Below, piece by piece: positions 1-20,938 of a stretch of DNA of 24,000 bases. The first letter of the stretch is position 1; the number at the start of each line of letters is the position of its first letter. The notes below the pieces were generated by a model. That model saw only the letters and a list, made by a program, of their open reading frames with translations, was not told where the DNA came from and made no database searches. The DNA comes from Magnetococcus sp. YQC-5 (GTDB lineage: Bacteria > Pseudomonadota > Magnetococcia > Magnetococcales > Magnetaquicoccaceae). The DNA lies in the NCBI GenBank assembly GCA_039908085.1, contig JAMOBH010000022.1, positions 1 through 24,000 of the forward strand. Direction: 5' to 3'. The translations under genes were made by a program, and so were the position numbers.

Positions 1-47
<47 letters not shown>

Positions 48-49
<2 letters not shown>

Positions 50-2778: not shown

Positions 2779-2897
2779 AAAACCTTGGGGGGCGGTTCGG
2801 CCCCCCAACCCCCCCCCTCTTTTTTTTTAAATTTATTAAAAAAAAGAGGGGGTCTGGGGGATTCATCCCCCAGGGTTTTGCTTTTGTATTTTCTCTT
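2779..2897 (-). repeat. Palindromic intergenic element, copy 2 (full, inverted orientation)
   Basis: The sequence is AAAACCTTGGGGGGCGGTTCGGCCCCCCAACCCCCCCCTC-T9-AAATTTATT-A8-GAGGGGGTCTGGGGGATTCATCCCCCAGGGTTTTGCTTTTG. Hairpins lie at 2787-2806 and 2854-2873. The copy sits in the divergent gap between the MCP gene and pqiA. Confidence 0.9.
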
Positions 2898-2936: not shown

Positions 2937-3542
2937 ATGACTGTTTTATTATCAGCATGTCACGATTGTGATGCCTTGTATCGGATTCCAGATGTGCCAT
3001 CTGGCAGTGTGGTGCGATGCTTGCGTTGTGGTGCCGAATTGTACCGGGACCGTGCGCACTCCCTGGATATCCCTTTGGCATGGACCTGCACCGGCATGAT
3101 TCTGTTTTTGATTGCCAACCTCAACCCACTGTTGATTTTGCAACTGGGGGGACGCATGCAGAGCAACACCTTGCTGGCAGGTGTCCAGGCGTTGGCTTAT
3201 GAAGGCATGTGGGATCTGGCCATCCTGGTATTTTGTACCAGTATTTTGTTTCCATTTCTGATCCTGGCCCTCCTGCTGTATGTTTTACTCCCCTTGAGGT
3301 TTGATTATATGCCGTGGCAACTGGCTCGAATCTTTCGTCTGGTGCAGGCCGTGACCCCCTGGGCCATGGTGGGAGTCTATGTGTTGGGCATTTTTGTGGC
3401 GTATGTCAAATTGATTTCCATGGCCACTGTGGTGCCCGGCATTGCGCTGTATGCCCTTTTTGCCTTGCTGCTGGTCACATCCGCTCTCCAAGCCACCCTG
3501 GATCCCCGGATGATTTGGTCTCGGATTCCGGTGTCACCATGA
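2937..3542 (+). CDS. pqiA: PqiA-family (paraquat-inducible protein A) integral membrane protein, first half-module
   Basis: The N-terminal zinc-ribbon is CHDCDALYRIPDVPSGSVVRCLRCGAEL, followed by multiple TM helices. The gene sits upstream of pqiB and pqiC. AAGAG lies about 10 nt upstream of the ATG. Confidence 0.85.
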   Translation: MTVLLSACHDCDALYRIPDVPSGSVVRCLRCGAELYRDRAHSLDIPLAWTCTGMILFLIANLNPLLILQLGGRMQSNTLLAGVQALAYEGMWDLAILVFCTSILFPFLILALLLYVLLPLRFDYMPWQLARIFRLVQAVTPWAMVGVYVLGIFVAYVKLISMATVVPGIALYALFALLLVTSALQATLDPRMIWSRIPVSP

Positions 3543-4180
3543 GCAGGAACGTACCCACTGCGGCTGGGGTCGGACTGATCGCCTGTCATGTTTGTGGTCT
3601 GCTCTCACCATCACACCAGGTGTTGCCCAAAACAAACAAGCGGTGTCCCAGATGTCAGGCTCCTTTGCATCTGCGCAAGCCAAACACGCTTTCCAGAACA
3701 TGGGCTTTGATATGGACCGCCATCATCCTGTATATTCCCGCCAACGCCTATCCGGTGATGACTGTCAGCAAACTGGGACGCGGCGAGCCGGATACGATTT
3801 TGAGTGGTGTCAAACATCTCATCGAAAGCGGCATGTGGCCCCTGGCCTTGCTGGTTTTTGTCGCCAGTATCGTGGTTCCTGTCATGAAGATCGGTGTTTT
3901 GATTTACTTGCTGATCACGGTGCAACGGCGTTCCAGGCAGCGATGTCGAGACCGAACGGCTCTTTATCGCCTGTTGGAGGCGTTTGGCCATTGGTCCATG
4001 GTAGACATTTTTCTGGTATCGATTCTGGCGGCCCTGGTTGATTTTGGTACACTGGCTACAATCAAGCCGAATATCGGGGCTTCATTTTTTGCGGCTGTTG
4101 TGGTTGCAACCCTGTTTGCGGCCCGAAGTTTTGATCCAAGAGTCATCTGGGATGTCATGGACGAGGAGCAGGCATCATGA
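3539..4180 (+). CDS. pqiA: PqiA-family integral membrane protein, second half-module
   Basis: The internal start of ORF 3314..4180 is at ATG 3539, forming an ATGA overlap with the upstream stop. The second zinc-ribbon is CHVCGLLSPSHQVLPKTNKRCPRCQAPL, followed by the PqiA-like stretch YIPANAYPVMTV and TM helices. There is another ATGA overlap with pqiB at 4177-4180. Confidence 0.85.
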   Translation: MSRNVPTAAGVGLIACHVCGLLSPSHQVLPKTNKRCPRCQAPLHLRKPNTLSRTWALIWTAIILYIPANAYPVMTVSKLGRGEPDTILSGVKHLIESGMWPLALLVFVASIVVPVMKIGVLIYLLITVQRRSRQRCRDRTALYRLLEAFGHWSMVDIFLVSILAALVDFGTLATIKPNIGASFFAAVVVATLFAARSFDPRVIWDVMDEEQAS

Positions 4181-5925
4181 ATGAAGAGTCGCACCACACG
4201 TCGGAAAAGGATCCTTTATCCTCTCCACCCCGTGATCTTGTCATTCCCGAACCTGTAGTGGAAATCTCCCGGCATGGCGGTTGGCAAACGATCTGGTTGA
4301 TCCCTGTGGTGGCGGTGTTGATCGGCGGGTGGGTGCTGGTCAAAACCTGGATGGATCAGGGACCGGAGATCGTTTTGACTTTCAAAAGTGCGGAAGGGAT
4401 CGAAGCTGGCAAGACTCGCATCAAACATAAATCCGTGTCAGTGGGGGTGGTGGAGAGTGTGGCTTTGAGTCCTGATTTTACCGAAGTAAGAATTCACGCT
4501 TCTTTGGTCAAGGGCACTGAACGCTTTCTGACGAGTGGAACCCGGTTCTGGGTCGTGCGTCCCCAAATGAATTTACGGGAAATTTCAGGACTTGGAACCC
4601 TGGTCGCCGGGGCACATATCGAAATGGAACCCGGTCAGGGCAGTGAGCAAAGAACCTTCAAAGGAGTCGAAAGCCCGCCTTTGGTGCGTATGGATGTGCC
4701 AGGTTCACGCTATGTTATTGAATCGAATACGTTGGGATCTCTGGACAAAGGTTCTCCGGTCTATTTTCGGGACATCCCGGTTGGGCAGGTGTTGGGATAC
4801 GAACTCATGCCAGACATGAAAGGGGTGGTATTGCCTGTTTTCATTCAGGAACCTTACAACCAACTGATCAAAAGCAATACCCGGTTCTGGGAGACCAGCG
4901 GAGTCGATTTGGTGGTTGATGCCCAAGGATTTCGTTTGAAATCCAGCTCTTTGACGCGTTTGCTCATGGGAGGGATCACGTTCAGTACTCCGGAAACGTT
5001 GGAGCCGGGCAAGCCCGCATCAGAAACCACCCGATTCACCCTGTACAAAAACGAGGCGGCGGTTGCAGAGGAATCCTATACCAAGAAGCTGATATTTGTC
5101 TTGTATTTCAAAGGTTCGGTGCGCGGATTGAACGTGGATGCCCCGGTGGAGTTTCGCGGTATTCAGGTGGGAAAGGTTACGGATATCCGGTTGGAATTCG
5201 ACTTTGAATCCAGCACGTTTCGGATTCCGGTTCTGGTGCAGATTGAACCGGAACGGGTGATCGAAATCACGACCGAGGGCGTGCAGGCCATTCGTCAGCA
5301 GCAGCCAGAAGAATTTCTGCAAACTCTGGTAAAACGTGGTTTGCGGGCGCAATTGAAAACGGGGAGTTATTTGACGGGTCAGCTTTTTGTGGAATTGGAT
5401 CTGCATCCCAATACACCGATTACGTTGTTGGGGGGCGGACAGCATCTTTACAAAGAACTGCCCACCATTCCTACCAGTTTGGACGAGATCACGGCTTCAT
5501 TGACGGATTTTCTGAAAAAAGTTCAGACGTTGCCCCTGGAAGGGATCGGTCGGGAGCTGCATGAGACCCTCAAGGGGGCGAATCGGACGGTCAATGCCCC
5601 TGAAACCATGGAGACCATTCGTTCTGCTGCTCAGGCTTTGGTCGAGGTGCGTGGATTGGTGAAAAATCTTCAGCAACAAGTGGATGCCCTTGGTTCTGGG
5701 GCGGTGCGGACCAGTAGTGCGGCCACAGCCACTTTGCAACAGTTGGAGGAAACTCTGGTCAAGGTGGATGGTCTCATTGGACCCAAGGCACCGCTTCATT
5801 ATGGCATGGTGGAGGCGGTACGGGAATTGGCGTCGGCGGCTCGTTCCGTACGCAGTTTCATTGATTTGTTGGAACGCAAACCAGAATCTTTGCTGTTTGG
5901 CAAGGAAAAAGAGGGAGGTCGTTAA
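4177..5925 (+). CDS. pqiB: PqiB-like multi-MCE-domain intermembrane transport protein
   Basis: The 582-aa protein has an N-terminal TM segment (WLIPVVAVLIGGWVLV). It has repeated MCE-type segments (TFKSAEGIEAGKTRIKHKSVSVGVV; PVYFRDIPVGQV; PVEFRGIQVGKV) and a C-terminal helical region. It lies in pqiA-pqiB-pqiC order. Confidence 0.9.
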   Translation: MNEESHHTSEKDPLSSPPRDLVIPEPVVEISRHGGWQTIWLIPVVAVLIGGWVLVKTWMDQGPEIVLTFKSAEGIEAGKTRIKHKSVSVGVVESVALSPDFTEVRIHASLVKGTERFLTSGTRFWVVRPQMNLREISGLGTLVAGAHIEMEPGQGSEQRTFKGVESPPLVRMDVPGSRYVIESNTLGSLDKGSPVYFRDIPVGQVLGYELMPDMKGVVLPVFIQEPYNQLIKSNTRFWETSGVDLVVDAQGFRLKSSSLTRLLMGGITFSTPETLEPGKPASETTRFTLYKNEAAVAEESYTKKLIFVLYFKGSVRGLNVDAPVEFRGIQVGKVTDIRLEFDFESSTFRIPVLVQIEPERVIEITTEGVQAIRQQQPEEFLQTLVKRGLRAQLKTGSYLTGQLFVELDLHPNTPITLLGGGQHLYKELPTIPTSLDEITASLTDFLKKVQTLPLEGIGRELHETLKGANRTVNAPETMETIRSAAQALVEVRGLVKNLQQQVDALGSGAVRTSSAATATLQQLEETLVKVDGLIGPKAPLHYGMVEAVRELASAARSVRSFIDLLERKPESLLFGKEKEGGR

Positions 5926-5970
5926 TGCATTATTTTGGCAGTTTCATAGTCCTTTTTGATCGGATCGTTT

Positions 5971-6067
5971 CCTTTTTTCCAATCAAAAATTTAAAAAAAA
6001 AGGGTGGAGGGGTCTGGGGAGGCCGTGAGCCGCCTCCCCAGGAAGTTTCTCCCAAGGAGGGTTTTGA
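5971..6067 (+). repeat. Palindromic intergenic element, copy 3 (degenerate/hybrid arm) inside the pqiB-pqiC junction
   Basis: A9 (5993-6001) is followed by GGGTGGAGGGGT, then a 10-bp-stem hairpin CTGGGGAGGC...GCCTCCCCAG (6014-6041), then GAAGTTT. Further on is CCCAAGGAGGGTTTTG, reminiscent of the CCCCAAGGTTTTG terminus. A residual T-run lies at 5973-5978. Confidence 0.7.
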
Positions 6068-6179
6068 TCGGGGGCGTGATGCTGTAGAAACGTCTCCTTC
6101 TTTTCATTCCTGTCATTGGTCGGGGCGTCCCAGGAGTGGTGGTTGGCGTCACGGATTTTTGGCGGTGTCGTGGATTTTG

Positions 6180-6752: not shown

Positions 6753-6896
6753 AAAATCCTTATTGCGGTTTTTCCAGTGTTCAAGTTTTTTTAAAATCAT
6801 TAAAAAAAAAGAGGGGGTTTGGGGGATTCTTCCCCCAAGGTTTTGCCTTTGATTTTTTTCTTTTGCCTTTGACTTTTTTGCTTTTGCCTTTTTGCC
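6753..6896 (-). repeat. Palindromic intergenic element, copy 4 (inverted; one arm decayed, other arm followed by a ~20-nt tandem repeat)
   Basis: The decayed arm is AAAATCCTTATTGCGGT... (6753-6785). It is followed by T7, AAAATCATT, A9 (6802-6810) and GAGGGGGTTTGGGGGATTCTTCCCCCAAGGTTTTGCC, with a hairpin at 6819-6838. Next come TTTTGCCTTTGATTTTTTTC, TTTTGCCTTTGACTTTTTTGC and TTTTGCCTTTTTGCC (6841-6896). Confidence 0.8.
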
Positions 6897-8710: not shown

Positions 8711-9118
8711 ATGGCTGTTAAAGAAAAAGTTCCTCAGGAACGCAAAAATCGACGGATGACCGCATATAATCCATCTGGAAATCCATTGTTGTGGTGTAAA
8801 TATGTTGGTTATTTGTTTCTCGGTATGAGTCTCTATTTTGTGGATCTGGCCAAACCACCAGGCAAGACTTTTTTTCACAGGATCATGGATCCCGGTATTG
8901 AAAAGCAGTGGGATCTCGATGTGATGACCCTCTCTTGGTTTTTTTTGTGGTTGGCTCTCTTGGTGGGCATCGGTGGCTTGATATTGAATGCCTTACGCTT
9001 GCGTCGCAAAAATGATCATTTGAGCGTGGGATTGATCGTGTTGTTGCTTTTGGTTGTATTGGTTATGGCAAGAGTGCCATCCGGAAATTCCATCATGGTC
9101 TTCCTCTCCCATATTTAA
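8711..9118 (+). CDS. Small integral membrane protein (about 3 TM helices), function unknown
   Basis: The ORF runs 8648..9118. I prefer ATG 8711 because GGAG lies 7 nt upstream. Hydrophobic segments are YVGYLFLGMSLYFV, LSWFFLWLALLVGIGGLILNAL and VGLIVLLLLVVLVMA. I recognise no family. Confidence 0.5.
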   Translation: MAVKEKVPQERKNRRMTAYNPSGNPLLWCKYVGYLFLGMSLYFVDLAKPPGKTFFHRIMDPGIEKQWDLDVMTLSWFFLWLALLVGIGGLILNALRLRRKNDHLSVGLIVLLLLVVLVMARVPSGNSIMVFLSHI

Positions 9119-9123
9119 AAATC

Positions 9124-9260
9124 AAAGTCAAAAGCAAAACCCTGTGGGATGAATCCCCCAGACCCCCTCTTTTTTTTAATAATTTGTTATAAAATAAAAA
9201 AATAATAAAAAAAAAAGGGTGGGGGGGTTGGGGGGCGGTTCACCGCCCCCCAAGGTTTTT
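9124..9260 (+). repeat. Palindromic intergenic element, copy 5 (full)
   Basis: The left arm has a hairpin at 9142-9161 with one mismatch (T at 9145). It is followed by ACCCCCTC-T8, a 29-nt A/T core, A10, GGGTGGGGGGGTT and a right hairpin GGGGGGCGGTTCACCGCCCCCC (9230-9251), ending in AAGGTTTT. The copy fills the convergent gap 9119-9269. Confidence 0.95.
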
Positions 9261-11647: not shown

Positions 11648-11800
11648 AAGCAAAATATTTTTCTGGCAAAGAGAAAAGTCAAAAGCAAAACCCCGGGGGA
11701 TGAATCCCCCAGACCCCCTCTTTTTTTTTAATAATTTAAAAAAAATTAAAAAAAAAGGGTGGGGGGGTTGGGGGGCGGTTCACCGCCCCCCAAGGTTTTG
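11648..11800 (+). repeat. Palindromic intergenic element, copy 6 (full)
   Basis: The left extension is AAGCAAAA...GGCAAAGAGAAAAGTCAAAAGCAAAACC. The left hairpin core lies at 11695-11710, followed by ACCCCCTC-T9, the core AATAATTTAAAAAAAATT and A9. Then come GGGTGGGGGGGTT, the right hairpin (11770-11791) and AAGGTTTTG. The copy fills the convergent gap 11648-11802. Confidence 0.95.
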
Positions 11801-15070: not shown

Positions 15071-15225
15071 AAAAGTCAACAGCAAAACCCTGGGGGATGA
15101 ATCCCCCAGACCCCCTCTTTTTTTTTAATATTTAAAAACAAAAAATTAAAAAATTAAAAAATTAAAAAATTAAAAAAAAAGGGTGGGGGGTATTGGGGGG
15201 CGGTTCACCGCCCCCCAAGGTCTTG
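15071..15225 (+). repeat. Palindromic intergenic element, copy 7 (full, expanded A/T core)
   Basis: The left hairpin is CTGGGGGATGAATCCCCCAG (15090-15109), followed by ACCCCCTC-T9. The core contains 4 perfect tandem AAAAAATT units (15140-15171) followed by A9. Then come GGGTGGGGGGTATT, the right hairpin (15195-15216) and AAGGTCTTG. Confidence 0.95.
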
Positions 15226-16708: not shown

Positions 16709-16990
16709 ATGCAACATGTCACACTTGATGATCATCCGCATGCGGATCGACTCAGCTTGGAACAACTGAAAGAACTGGGTTCTGGATGCGTGGCACCCGA
16801 CGAGGTGGCATCTTTGTATCATCAAGCCTTTCAGAAATTCGGCACCCAGTCACTTTGGAGTCGACAACCAAGCGAACAACCGACTATTGCCCAGGCATTG
16901 GTTGTTTCTGAGTGTCTGCGACGTGAGGGCAACCTGACAACCCGCTCTTTTGCAATACAGATCGAAGAGGCATGCCGTGCCGCTTTCTGA
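16709..16990 (+). CDS. Small hypothetical protein (93 aa), candidate partner/antitoxin of the downstream AbiEii-like gene
   Basis: This is an ATG ORF whose 3' end overlaps the downstream gene by 14 nt if that gene starts at GTG 16977. I recognise no motif, and it is much shorter than canonical AbiEi. Confidence 0.45.
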   Translation: MQHVTLDDHPHADRLSLEQLKELGSGCVAPDEVASLYHQAFQKFGTQSLWSRQPSEQPTIAQALVVSECLRREGNLTTRSFAIQIEEACRAAF

Positions 16991-17795
16991 ACTGCAAAGC
17001 GCGATTCTCGTGCTTTTGGCATCACATGGAAATCCAGAAAGCTATGTTGCCGGTGCAAGTGTATTGAATCGGTATGGCCCGCGTTTTTCTGATGATATTG
17101 ATATTTTTCACGATCAGGAGGAAAGTGTCGCCTCTGCCTCGGCACTTGATATCAAGTTATTGGTTGAAAAAGGTTTTACGATTTATTGGTTGCGGCGACA
17201 ACCAGGTATTCATGCCGTCATTGTGCAGGGGCGGGGAGGTAGCACAAAACTGGAATGGGTACGTGACAGTGATTATAGATTTTTTCCAACGGTCGCTGAT
17301 GATTTTTTTGGTTATCGATTGCACGTGATTGATCTGGCCACCAACAAGGCTTTGGCGGCAGCAGGCAGGCGTGAACCGCGAGACATACTGGATCTCCTCT
17401 ACATTCATGAACAACACCTGCCGCTCGGCGCAGTGATTTGGGCAACGGTTGCCAAAGATCCAGGCTATTCACCAGAAAGCCTGATCACAGAAATCCGCCG
17501 CAACGCCCGCTATCGTGCAGATGATTACGCCGACTTGTCCCTGCTTGAACCGGTGGATGCCGCTGCCGTGTCGCAAGCCTTGCGGCTGGCCCTTGATGAA
17601 GCCGATTCGTTTGTGCGGGCCATGCCGGTTGGCAAAGAAGGGTTGTTGTTTTTGAAACACGGCATACCTGTACTGCCAGAACCAGAAAATCTGGCTGACT
17701 ATCAGGAGCATGCAGGACAGAGGCGCGGTTTGTGGCCGTCATCCTCGGAGATCTCGGCAGCCATGGTGGAATGGTATCGGACGTCGAAGCTGTGA
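16977..17795 (+). CDS. Nucleotidyltransferase of the AbiEii/AbiGii (DUF1814-like) toxin family
   Basis: SYVAGASVLNRYGPRFSDDIDIFHD resembles the G-x-x-L...R-x-S-x-D-I-D-x nucleotidyltransferase motif. NKALAAAGRREPRDILDLLYI resembles the conserved ...R..pRDlyDl... motif. The ORF track starts it at TTG 16950. I prefer GTG 16977, which has AAGAGG 6 nt upstream. Confidence 0.6.
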   Translation: MPLSELQSAILVLLASHGNPESYVAGASVLNRYGPRFSDDIDIFHDQEESVASASALDIKLLVEKGFTIYWLRRQPGIHAVIVQGRGGSTKLEWVRDSDYRFFPTVADDFFGYRLHVIDLATNKALAAAGRREPRDILDLLYIHEQHLPLGAVIWATVAKDPGYSPESLITEIRRNARYRADDYADLSLLEPVDAAAVSQALRLALDEADSFVRAMPVGKEGLLFLKHGIPVLPEPENLADYQEHAGQRRGLWPSSSEISAAMVEWYRTSKL

Positions 17796-18755: not shown

Positions 18756-20657
18756 ATGATGGCTTCGATCACGACTCATGGACCGTTTTCTTCAAGCTTG
18801 TGGCGTGTCCATTGGGCATCCCTCATGCTTTGCGTCTGCGCATTGGCCTGGATGCCTGCTCTGGCGGTCGCCGGGGACTCTACTGTCCCACACTCGCAAA
18901 AGACCGGCCATGACCAGAATTCCAATCAGATCGGCACGATCTCTCCTGCCCGGATCGTGCCCCTGGATCCATCGGATACACAATCCCCCTGGCAAAGCCT
19001 GATCAATGACTTTCTGCAAGATTCCAGGCACCATTCCTCCAGGAGCTACTTGCAACGAACACCTCCCACACCCTCGGCTCCTGATCAGATCCGTGAACTC
19101 TTTCTTGCATTGGCACCGTTGTCAAGGGATCAACTCAAAACCCTGCTCGACCGCCAACCCCCTTCTTCCGCACTGCTTCCATTCATCCATCTGGTGCTGG
19201 GTGATCGCGCCGCAGCCGATGGCGAAGAAAAAGAAGCCCATCTCCACTGGCAGAAAGCTTCCCTCTCCACCCTGGTCAATACCGAAGCCATGCTCCGTCT
19301 GGCCAATGACGCCAATCCCAAAGATTCCTTCGTGGCCGGTCTGATGATTCCATTAAGCGGTGCTTCAGCCTCCATGGGGACCAACCTCATCATGGCCGCC
19401 AGAAAAGCCCTGGCCGATTATCGCGATGTCAACATCCACCTCGAAGTCGCTGACAGCGGGGGGTCCGCTGCATCAGCCCAGGCCGCCGTGAAAAATCTCA
19501 TCGCACGCGGCAGCAAAATCATCATCGGTCCCATTTTTCACCCCGAAGCCATCGCCGCTGCCAAAACCGCCGCTGCCCATAACATCCCCATCATGCCCTT
19601 GAATCCCAGGCAGGAAATCCTCGCCGCTGGAGGGGCGGTCTATTTGAATGCCTTTCAACCCGACTCCCAGGCCCGGATCATGGCCCGCCATGCCTTCAAG
19701 GATGCCGGTTTGCGTCGTGTCGCCATCCTGGCCGCAGATACGGATTATGGCCAACTCCAGGCCCAAACCTTTATCGATGAATTCATGGCTCTGGGGGGCG
19801 AGATCACCCATTCCGTCCTCTTCCCGGAACAGGAGACCGATTTTTCCACAGCCATCAAGATGCTGGTGCATCTGGATCCGGATGCTGTCAAGGCCCGTTT
19901 GGCCGCTCCCAAAACCGGTGCCCTGGATCCCATGGATCGTCCAGCACCGCGCTCAGAAAAAAATCTGGAACCCCTGGTTGATTTCGAGGCCCTCTTTTTG
20001 CCCACTACAGCCAAACAGGCCAGACAAATCGCTTCACAAGCCTCCTTGTTCAATATTCGTTCACCTGGAATCGCCCTGTTGGGGGCTTCGCTCTGGAACC
20101 GTCCCGAACTCCTGGAAGAGACCGATTTTCTCCTGGGTGGAACCTTTTGCGATATCAACCAAACGGTCCGGGATCATTTCAATGCCATCTGTCAAAAAAT
20201 ACTCGGCGTGACCCCCATTCCCGCACTCTCCATGTTGACTTATGACAGCATCGTCATTCTTGCCCAACTGTTGCGTGATCAACGATTGGGCGGGGTCGAA
20301 TGGCATCAGGGCTTTACCAGATCCACAGGCTTTTATGGCAGTGCCGGACCTGTCCGTTTCTTGACCAACGGTGTTAGTGAACGTCTTTATCATCTTTATC
20401 AGATCGAGGAGAAAAGAACCGTGTTTCTCCCCGCACCACCGCAAAATGGTGCCCCTGATCCCAATCGTCGTCCATCCAGGGCAGATGCGCCAGATAATAA
20501 AACTGAGCAGGATGTCATTAAAAATGATTGGACCTCCCCTTCAACCCCGACTTCTGATAATACACAGCAGGATTCCATTCAAAATGATTGGACTCCGAAT
20601 TCAACCCCAGCGTCTGAAGATGATTCAGGCGTGGGAACTCCCGTTACTTCACAGTGA
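18756..20657 (+). CDS. lpoA: LpoA/LppC-like penicillin-binding-protein activator (type-1 periplasmic binding fold) with a repetitive C-terminal tail
   Basis: The PBP-type-1 region is GLMIPLSGASASMGTNLIMAARKALADY...GSKIIIGPIFHPEAIAAAKTAAAHNIPIMPLN. The divergent arrangement with rsmI matches the yraL/yraM synteny of gammaproteobacteria. The start is uncertain (ATG 18729, 18756, 18759 or 18825). Confidence 0.7.
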   Translation: MMASITTHGPFSSSLWRVHWASLMLCVCALAWMPALAVAGDSTVPHSQKTGHDQNSNQIGTISPARIVPLDPSDTQSPWQSLINDFLQDSRHHSSRSYLQRTPPTPSAPDQIRELFLALAPLSRDQLKTLLDRQPPSSALLPFIHLVLGDRAAADGEEKEAHLHWQKASLSTLVNTEAMLRLANDANPKDSFVAGLMIPLSGASASMGTNLIMAARKALADYRDVNIHLEVADSGGSAASAQAAVKNLIARGSKIIIGPIFHPEAIAAAKTAAAHNIPIMPLNPRQEILAAGGAVYLNAFQPDSQARIMARHAFKDAGLRRVAILAADTDYGQLQAQTFIDEFMALGGEITHSVLFPEQETDFSTAIKMLVHLDPDAVKARLAAPKTGALDPMDRPAPRSEKNLEPLVDFEALFLPTTAKQARQIASQASLFNIRSPGIALLGASLWNRPELLEETDFLLGGTFCDINQTVRDHFNAICQKILGVTPIPALSMLTYDSIVILAQLLRDQRLGGVEWHQGFTRSTGFYGSAGPVRFLTNGVSERLYHLYQIEEKRTVFLPAPPQNGAPDPNRRPSRADAPDNKTEQDVIKNDWTSPSTPTSDNTQQDSIQNDWTPNSTPASEDDSGVGTPVTSQ

Positions 20658-20686: not shown

Positions 20687-20884
20687 ATGGCACAAACTTC
20701 TGTTGTTTCTTCCGCGAACAGTTCTTTCAAACCCAGTGCAACCGCGCCCAAATCGCAACTCGTCATGAATCGCTCTTCGGTTCAGCCATCGACCAAAACC
20801 GCAGCAGCGGCCAAACTCCCTGTGAAGGAAATCATGGAGCAGTCCACCAAACCAAGCAACAACCGGATCAGCGTTCAGGCGTGA
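20687..20884 (+). CDS. Possible small Ser/Thr/Ala/Lys-rich protein (65 aa), doubtful
   Basis: This is in-frame ATG 20687 within ORF 20654..20884, with GAGAG 8 nt upstream. The sequence is low-complexity, and a hairpin plus T-run follows at 20899-20938. I recognise no family. Confidence 0.25.
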   Translation: MAQTSVVSSANSSFKPSATAPKSQLVMNRSSVQPSTKTAAAAKLPVKEIMEQSTKPSNNRISVQA

Positions 20885-20898
20885 TCTGTTCATGGTGT

Positions 20899-20938
20899 CG
20901 GGGCGGTCAATCGCCCCTGAACCACTCACCTTTTTAAT
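20899..20938 (+). terminator. Diverged solo element arm acting as candidate terminator after lpoA
   Basis: GGGGCG-GTCAAT-CGCCCC (20900-20917) is followed by the 13-nt spacer TGAACCACTCACC and then TTTTTAAT. This layout matches the element arm GGGGGGCGG-TGAA-CCGCCCCCC, AACCCCCCCACCC, T9, AAT. Confidence 0.4.

Follow-up and report, generated by a model that had tools for sequence, protein, structure and literature searches.

The 24,000-nt stretch of DNA analysed here (the window) comes from Magnetococcus sp. YQC-5, an uncultured freshwater magnetotactic coccus, and carries several copies of a real and well-defined family of palindromic repeats of 120-155 bp in which GC hairpins surround an AT core. 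Copies of this element are nearly identical, lie outside genes at gene 3′ ends, are oriented with respect to transcription and are absent from some orthologous sites. We regard it as probable that they form a REP/BIME-like (REPIN-like) mosaic family, which supplies two-way terminator or mRNA-end hairpins and has spread by a candidate hairpin-dependent route that leaves no target duplication; the role in termination and the mode of spread are what we infer from sequence features. On the database and literature searches made, the family appears to be previously undescribed.

In each full copy, a left and a right arm enclose an A/T core; this is the architecture that the initial annotation had proposed (arms, T-run, A/T core, A-run). 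As read from the window, the left arm has the layout (AAAGTCAAAAG)CAAAACC-CTGGGGGATGAATCCCCCAG-ACCCCCTC-T8-9 and the right arm the layout A8-10-GGGTGGGGGGG-TTGGGGGGCGGTTCACCGCCCCCCAA-GGTTTT, and the core between them is made exclusively of A/T and varies in length from 9 to 54 nt. The dense composite palindromic intergenic family described in that annotation is recovered by pattern searches, a repeat finder and a profile alike. A left-arm 28-mer, with up to 3 mismatches, matches five window sites (2846-2873 and 6811-6838 on the minus strand; 9142-9169, 11693-11720 and 15090-15117 on the plus strand) and a 22-mer right-arm hairpin has three exact matches, the expectation in shuffled sequence being 0.00 for each. 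The repeat finder independently groups the window copies, and an nhmmer profile of the family built from 49 composite copies detects the four full copies at E = 1e-29 to 4e-33, positions 6787-6847 at E = 7e-16 and positions 5972-6042 at E = 2e-7. Judged by their sequence, the two arms are diverged inverted homologues of one module, as had been claimed. Their termini, CAAAACCCTGGGGG and CAAAACCTTGGGGG, show the reported inverted match at 13 of 14 positions (read by eye), and copies 9124-9260 and 11675-11800 share 52 identical nt in their right arms, rather than the 49 nt first counted. In all, the window holds four full copies and three to four partial ones:

1-49, plus strand: right-arm end (CCGCC...CAAGGTTTT), by eye; directly before the MCP stop codon (48).
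2779-2897, minus strand: copy A, full composite, inverted (E = 1.6e-29); right-arm hairpin 2785-2806, T9/AT core/A8 2820-2845, left-arm hairpin 2853-2874, A-rich tail up to 2897; flanked by the divergently transcribed MCP (start 2492) and pqiA (start 2937).
5972-6067, plus strand: degenerate right-arm copy (A9-GGGTGGAGGGGTCTGGGGAGGCCGTGAGCCGCCTCCCCAGG...; E = 2e-7); within an insert of about 230 nt separating pqiB from the probable true pqiC start.
6786-6896, minus strand: solo left arm, inverted (E = 7e-16), then TTTTGCC/TTTGA-type short repeats; between the pqiC stop (6752) and the motA start (6999).
9124-9260, plus strand: copy B, full composite (E = 3e-32); A-rich leader 9124-9138, CAAAACC 9135-9141, left hairpin 9142-9161, C-rich spacer 9162-9169, T8 9170-9177, A/T core 9178-9206, A10 9207-9216, G-rich segment 9217-9227, right hairpin 9228-9253, GGTTTT 9254-9259; occupies the entire gap between the convergent stop codons at 9118 (plus) and 9270 (minus).
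11675-11800, plus strand: copy C, full composite (E = 4e-33), with an A-rich leader from 11648; between the stops of a 69-aa ORF (11647, plus) and the PDZ-protein gene (11803, minus).
15071-15225, plus strand: copy D, full composite (E = 7e-33), with an expanded core containing (AAAAAATT)x4; between the Na/Ala symporter gene start (15085, minus) and the CZB-domain gene stop (15236, minus).
20899-20936, minus strand: weak, diverged right-arm-like module (E = 0.05).

The profile thus supports the four full copies, the degenerate copy at 5972-6067 and the solo arm among those originally listed, but not the fragment at 1-49, which gives no significant match to it. By eye this fragment reads as a right-arm end, CCGCCCCCC...CAAGGTTTT, whose C run has grown to about 43 nt. 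Positions 1-43 consist of 6 C, one G and 36 C, followed by CAAGGTTTT; this is possibly a hyper-expanded right-arm C run or a homopolymer or assembly artefact. The right terminus of copy C is only 2 nt away from the stop codon of the PDZ-protein gene. On the plus strand, the solo arm at 6786-6896 reads as a hairpin plus GGTTTTGCC, and the additional weak module at 20899-20936 as a right-arm-like hairpin, GGGGCGGTCAATCGCCCC, with a 13-nt spacer and T5, 15 nt past the TGA at 20882-20884. The core of copy D holds its A/T-rich tandem repeat, (AAAAAATT)x4, at 15139-15170. Similar A/T-rich repeats of 8-9 nt adjoin or fill elements elsewhere, such as (AATCTTTTA)x8 at positions 2590-2665 of locus L022 and (AAAACATT)n in the 5′ flanks of DH2_bin6 copies, which suggests slippage-driven length variation.

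Genes in the window encode a methyl-accepting chemoreceptor (MCP), PqiA, PqiB, PqiC, MotA, MotB, a PDZ protein, a Na/alanine symporter and a CZB-domain protein. Several features of the region lie apart from the repeats. A perfect sigma-70 consensus (TTGACA-17-TATAAT, 12/12) is present on the minus strand at 2507-2535, outside the element and just upstream of the chemoreceptor gene start at 2492. The pqiA region at 2937-4180 is covered by two overlapping ORFs, 2937-3542 and 3314-4180, which use different frames and both encode a PqiA domain; in relatives there is either a single gene of 426-463 aa or a pair of 208-aa genes. Two tandem direct repeats of 60 nt, 77% identical, lie at 20497-20616, near the 3′ end of a 642-aa periplasmic-binding-protein ORF. 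AbiEii-like nucleotidyltransferase toxin genes occur at 16950-17795 and, in nARSLQbin1, at positions 5012-5863 of locus L035, where the gene is bracketed by inverted left modules.

The element is common, nearly letter for letter, to at least eight related genomes. In a scan that covered one genome per species, exact matches to the 24-nt left-arm core occur in at least 79 stretches, all of them, among the matches listed, in seven Magnetococcales MAGs (DMHC-6, DH2_bin6, nARSLQbin1, nW5bin1, nW5bin3, nMBPbin6 and HCHbin5), and many of these stretches are at contig ends. More than 120 copies of the left hairpin module are present in about 610 kb of loci, and copies are near-identical both within and between genomes. 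The right arm, and hence the composite, is restricted to YQC-5, DMHC-6 and HCHbin5 in the loci examined. 'Ca. Magnetaquicoccaceae' is the family of YQC-5, and DMHC-6 is placed in another one (PMC11950176), with AAI values to FCR-1 of 63.5% and 55.0%, respectively (PMC11950176). The PqiB encoded in the window has 100% identity to a protein of the YQC-5 MAG, and its next relatives are 72-74% identical. The composite is missing in DH2_bin6 and nW5bin1, closer relatives of YQC-5, and the left core is absent, even at 5 mismatches, from the 21.7-kb FCR-1 locus and from the PDZX and JADGCA loci. The occurrence of the composite in YQC-5 and the distant DMHC-6, but not in the closer relatives of YQC-5, suggests horizontal spread or repeated loss.

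Outside these genomes, the left-arm core has no match in viral contigs or in a plasmid database. Only one of 15 matches of the 20-nt left hairpin to JGI metagenome contigs is a true element (locus L088), and no metagenome relatives were found of the flanking 643-aa protein. Twelve of the 15 metagenome matches belong to an unrelated conserved repeat of about 130 nt (loci L085-L099, for example L092 3950-4130), with the layout AACCGGTTCAAAGATGGTGGGTG...GTA-hairpin-CTTGTGCTAGC...CTGCGGGATTTATCCCGCAGGGTTAGGAAGTTCACCCACC and sometimes two copies per contig; it has no Rfam match, and its upstream ORF in L092 encodes a BNR-repeat protein. In the window, Rfam 15 gave no match at gathering score, with generic hairpin models far below threshold, and a tRNA/tmRNA scan found nothing. 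No description of such repeats for Magnetococcales or magnetotactic bacteria was found in the literature, and the sequence, which the initial annotation did not recognise, thus matches nothing in Rfam at the gathering threshold, plasmids, viral contigs or the literature on Magnetococcales repeats.

Comparison of the loci reveals a modular family. All genomes share a unit of about 50 nt, TCAAAACC-CTGGGGGATGAATCCCCCAG-ACCCCCTC-T8-(C)AAT, in which an A-rich tract leads to CAAAACC, a G5/C5 hairpin of 8-9 bp, ACCCCCTC and finally T8. This left module is solitary in nARSLQbin1, nW5bin1 and nW5bin3; in DH2_bin6 it stands between (AAAACATT)n on its 5′ side and another conserved piece of about 50 nt; and the DMHC-6 composite, of about 165 nt, has an extra small left hairpin (GAACATGATGCCCTGCGGGCAAAAAAA) and a right tail, GATTTTTATTTTTCCGATACAT. 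The flanking modules are lineage-specific, with ragged element ends that differ between lineages. Half-elements are commoner than composites in most genomes. Single sites mix clusters, partial units and other hairpin modules, deletion variants are present, partial elements stand in tandem at positions 1-190 of locus L071, and orthologous 3′ ends can carry different module sets (L004/L070, L035/L065 and L013/L073). A second hairpin repeat family, GGGGTCCAGGGG-(4-5 nt loop)-CCCCTGG, is present in nARSLQbin1 and DH2_bin6 as tandem arrays of two to three units directly past stop codons, often adjoining a left module (L004 1-200 on the reverse strand, L013 340-400, L022 2530-2590 and L035 3100-3160); at the orthologous sites, other genomes have different modules.

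The left arm at first seemed invariant beside a variable right arm, as if under special constraint. Among copies ascertained through the right arm, many left arms are mutated, internally deleted or missing; we therefore dropped this reading, the contrast being largely an ascertainment bias, and conclude that the family decays and recombines like other repeat families. A coding function was likewise rejected because run-length variation shifts the frame, in agreement with the earlier remark that no reading frame is conserved across copies.

Both filled and empty states are found among relatives at orthologous loci. Synteny of the MCP-pqiA-pqiB-pqiC block extends to FCR-1, nW5bin1 and two further MAGs. 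The MCP-pqiA spacer measures 444 nt in YQC-5, with the copy at 2779-2897, versus 82-232 nt in the relatives, which are without the element. The pqiB and pqiC genes overlap (ATGA) in FCR-1, nW5bin1 and the PDZX MAG; the YQC-5 genes are separated, from the pqiB stop to the likely pqiC signal peptide, by about 230 nt that contain the degenerate right arm at 5972-6067. The ancestral pqiC ATG is retained in this region (5925-6170), and the frame is open through the insert. A gene pair only 4 nt apart in DH2_bin6 has orthologues 147 nt apart in DMHC-6, with a composite between them; its right end is at the upstream stop, which the called frame places just inside the tail. One site is filled in nARSLQbin1, where a left module runs from the stop codon, and empty in nW5bin1, the flanking proteins being 91-93% identical. 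Some orthologous spacers are filled in both genomes, sometimes with different orientation or composition (L022/L063, L004/L070 and window/L071), and the DMHC-6 orthologue of the window PDZ gene has elements past its stop in another arrangement. Because every one of these comparisons spans species or families, the filled and empty states may date far back.

No direct repeats flank the copies, neither at least 30 DMHC-6 copies with defined ends nor the four window copies, and the target-site duplications that the initial annotation had in mind were thus not found. Its statement that the window encodes no transposase holds for all main ORFs, which were scanned against Pfam; in the related loci, no multi-copy ORF or transposase is present near or between copies. 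A phmmer search with an IS200 TnpA query, confirmed by Pfam as PF01797 at 131 bits, found no match among 3958 ORFs in the element-bearing loci, which total about 660 kb and cover a small part of each genome. A RayT sequence that Pfam did not confirm gave no match in the same 3958 ORFs (about 660 kb); as RAYT genes are usually single-copy, this is a weak test. The tetranucleotide GTAG/CGTC is absent from the element consensus, and the hairpins are flanked by AAAACC/ACCCCCTC on the left and by GTT or ATT/AAGGT on the right. We also rejected the view that inverted left arms delimit the cargo of a composite transposon: the genes that they bracket are ordinary housekeeping genes (for example those of RNase PH, a HemN-like enzyme, fumarase and methyltransferases).

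A classical MITE of the Correia/NEMIS type, that is, a deletion derivative of an IS with a DDE transposase, moved in trans by cut-and-paste through its terminal inverted repeats, would account for the size (120-165 bp), the high copy number, the inverted-repeat-like termini (13/14 match, read by eye), the AT-rich centre, which resembles that of Correia elements, and the existence of filled and empty sites. Its parent element could be expected to end in CAAAACC...GGTTTTG or GAACATGATGCCC...CCGATACAT. However, no parent was found in the loci covered, no multi-copy ORF or transposase accompanies the copies there, at least 30 DMHC-6 copies with defined ends have no target-site duplication, the arms occur alone or in other combinations in five genomes, and the ends differ between lineages. 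We therefore consider an origin as a MITE unlikely.

The location of the copies relative to genes was analysed with gene calls that, in the related loci, came from our own ORF and codon-bias caller. Outside called genes lie 112 of 123 left hairpin modules, and the remaining 11 are probably within ORF over-calls. In the window, the copies at 9124-9260 and 11675-11800 each fill a whole convergent stop-to-stop gap, those at 15071-15225 and 6786-6896 are between tandem genes, and the one at 2779-2897 is between divergent genes. Overall, 35% of convergent intergenic regions contain a left core, versus 12% of the divergent and 16% of the tandem regions (Fisher p = 0.0016 for convergent against divergent; 2.1 versus 0.4 per kb of spacer, about five-fold). 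Between tandem genes, the orientation of composites is biased 22:4 towards a right arm that faces the incoming gene (p = 0.0005). The right hairpin is 12-45 nt from the facing stop codon in 22 of 34 cases, which places that codon at the very end of the element; some DMHC-6 copies have the stop codon within their tail, and in 7 solo copies the TCA of the conserved T8-CAAT serves as a stop codon.

By hairpin anatomy and position, the elements look like two-way intrinsic terminators. The five top sites of a simple terminator scan over 20 kb of the window are element hairpins read outward, followed by GGTTTTG or GGTTTTTTT. Read inward, the T8-9 run is 8-13 nt from the stem, and the gap between left hairpin and T-run is 8 nt in the forward direction, both atypical of an intrinsic terminator. 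In 8 of 71 solo copies, the forward left module lies 2-42 nt upstream of a co-directional start codon; these copies do not fit a simple terminator and are hard to square with efficient forward termination. At positions 4990-5330 of locus L063, a divergent gene pair is separated by two left modules, each aimed at one start codon.

These features could also be those of ordinary intrinsic terminators that were never mobile, their likeness arising from selection or gene conversion for a strongly preferred sequence. Terminator anatomy and position favour this explanation, the diverged solo version at 20899-20936 resembles a plain terminator, and nW5bin1 has an unrelated classical terminator instead of the element at one orthologous site. 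It is nevertheless rather improbable given that more than 100 copies, from families whose proteins are 55-72% identical, agree exactly over 24-50 nt of loop, spacer and flanks, that eight cases are copies between divergent genes, that one copy lies between genes that overlap in relatives, and that internal-deletion variants are typical of decaying repeats. Conserved terminators had initially been set against mobility as an alternative that would exclude it; the two do not exclude each other here, as a terminator-like site and shape coexist with filled and empty orthologous sites.

The structure predicted for the composite, on either strand, comprises a closing stem (CAAAACC/GGTTTTG), a left hairpin, a long central stem, in which the C-rich segment and T-run pair with the A-run and G-rich segment, and a right hairpin. 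This four-helix junction has z scores of −4.3 to −6.1 relative to dinucleotide shuffles, with RNA as well as DNA parameters. RNAalifold found no compensatory changes; it missed the right-arm hairpin, whose sequence does vary, and the pairs of the left hairpin and closing stem are practically invariant. Covariation is uninformative on the structure because the predicted pairs are invariant and the right hairpin was not recovered. Inspection by eye of the left arm and T-run for a sigma-70 promoter found no convincing −35 box.

Such a junction, predicted with DNA parameters too, might instead point to a site that works at the level of DNA (a BIME-like target of a nucleoid protein or gyrase, a cruciform, a G-quadruplex or an uptake-type signal), the terminator-like position being a by-product. 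The exact conservation of loop and spacer sequence, which a terminator does not need, would be explained in this way, and the right arm has runs of three or more G and the cores combine an A-tract with a T-tract. We find this explanation rather improbable, since the bias in orientation with respect to transcription is strong and is not required of a symmetric DNA site, many copies are truncated or have lost an arm, and no protein partner is known. A multi-copy gene for a structured, cloverleaf-like small RNA is very improbable: the stable predicted fold of three hairpins and a closing stem would suit it, but this fold is equally good on both strands, no Rfam family matches at gathering score (sub-threshold matches being generic hairpins), there are no compensatory changes, the core length ranges between 9 and 54 nt, a conserved promoter was not detected and the arms occur alone.

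The REP/BIME-like reading, which we prefer, would work as follows. In YQC-5, DMHC-6 and HCHbin5, the left module is linked by the A/T core to the right module, its own diverged and inverted copy, and either strand of this doublet would fold into three hairpins closed by the CAAAACC/GGTTTTG termini. When transcribed from an adjacent gene, the GC hairpins followed by GGUUUUG or U8-9 would act as intrinsic terminators in both directions, and inside operons they might serve as attenuators and protect 3′ ends. New copies would arise by a hairpin-dependent insertion of the single-strand type, without duplication, for which a RAYT/IS200-like HUH enzyme is the obvious candidate; alternatively, copies may originate by conversion or replacement of pre-existing terminator hairpins. 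Recombination and slippage would afterwards shuffle, truncate and expand the modules and alter the lengths of G/C and A/T runs.

A more specific and quite tentative version, possible though not one that we favour, holds that the left module is the recognition site of a candidate mobilising or maintenance protein, and that the composite acts as a 'terminator cassette' that spreads itself by horizontal exchange among families of magnetotactic cocci, inserting at or on stop codons without duplication and sometimes supplying the stop. If true, it would explain the exact conservation of loop and spacer across an AAI of about 55%, the adjacency to stop codons and the phylogenetically discordant occurrence of the composite (YQC-5, DMHC-6 and HCHbin5).

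Should the REP/BIME-like reading be correct, freshwater Magnetococcales would have hundreds of copies of a standardised, possibly mobile two-way terminator. These repeats would then explain breaks in metagenome assemblies, given the many copies at contig ends, and would offer a lineage marker, a handle for strain typing and a compact natural terminator part in a group that has only recently become culturable (FCR-1). They would also be an additional case for studying how repeats of the REP kind remain identical over deep divergence when no transposase is evident. The repeat family alone reveals no new kind of genetic system.

Among known systems, the PATEs derived from IS200/IS605 resemble the magnetotactic family in having subterminal hairpins instead of true TIRs, in leaving no target duplication and in their strand or orientation bias; they differ in that here no TnpA/TnpB partner was found in the loci and no conserved tetra- or pentanucleotide target is demonstrated. 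ERIC/IRU elements of Enterobacteriaceae and Vibrio are imperfect palindromes of about 127 bp that are located in transcribed intergenic regions and conserved across genera, and we know of no established mechanism for their spread. Like the repeats described here, they are intergenic and conserved beyond neutral expectation over deep divergence, but their sequence and architecture are different, without homopolymer G/C hairpins or an A/T core, and their copy density is lower. Correia/NEMIS elements of Neisseria and other MITEs share with our family a length of 100-160 bp, inverted termini, an intergenic location, abundance and filled and empty sites, and they are able to terminate transcription or to undergo processing as RNA hairpins. 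TIRs of 26 bp, a TA duplication and an IHF site characterise Correia elements; copies of the present family, by contrast, have ragged ends and no visible duplication, and half-elements outnumber composites in most genomes.

REP/BIME elements occur in hundreds of copies and are strictly extragenic. Those of Enterobacteria and Pseudomonas are, like the present repeats, short GC-rich imperfect palindromes found outside genes, mostly at 3′ ends and in convergent gaps, as single units, inverted doublets or mosaics with other motifs, with a cluster make-up that varies between relatives and no target-site duplication. Their classical roles are those of attenuators, terminators and stabilisers of mRNA 3′ ends (PMC3733652), and most RAYT-associated REPs are marked by a GTAG/CGTC head (PMC3733652). 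The magnetotactic family differs by lacking this head and by the absence of a detected RAYT in about 660 kb of loci, as well as by its unrelated sequence, a C-rich spacer and T8-9 in each arm, a pure A/T core between them and a single core common to genomes that diverge at family level. The likeness to REPINs extends to two inverted units with a short spacer and to a predicted closing stem, central stem and two arm hairpins. The initial annotation had named MITE, Correia and REP/BIME elements together; the first two likenesses give way before the missing target-site duplications, the ragged, lineage-specific ends and the want of a parent element in the loci covered, and the best fit appears to be with REP/BIME elements, given modules that stand alone, form doublets and are shuffled in clusters. 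The family thus appears to be an addition to the known REP/BIME class of bacterial intergenic repeats.
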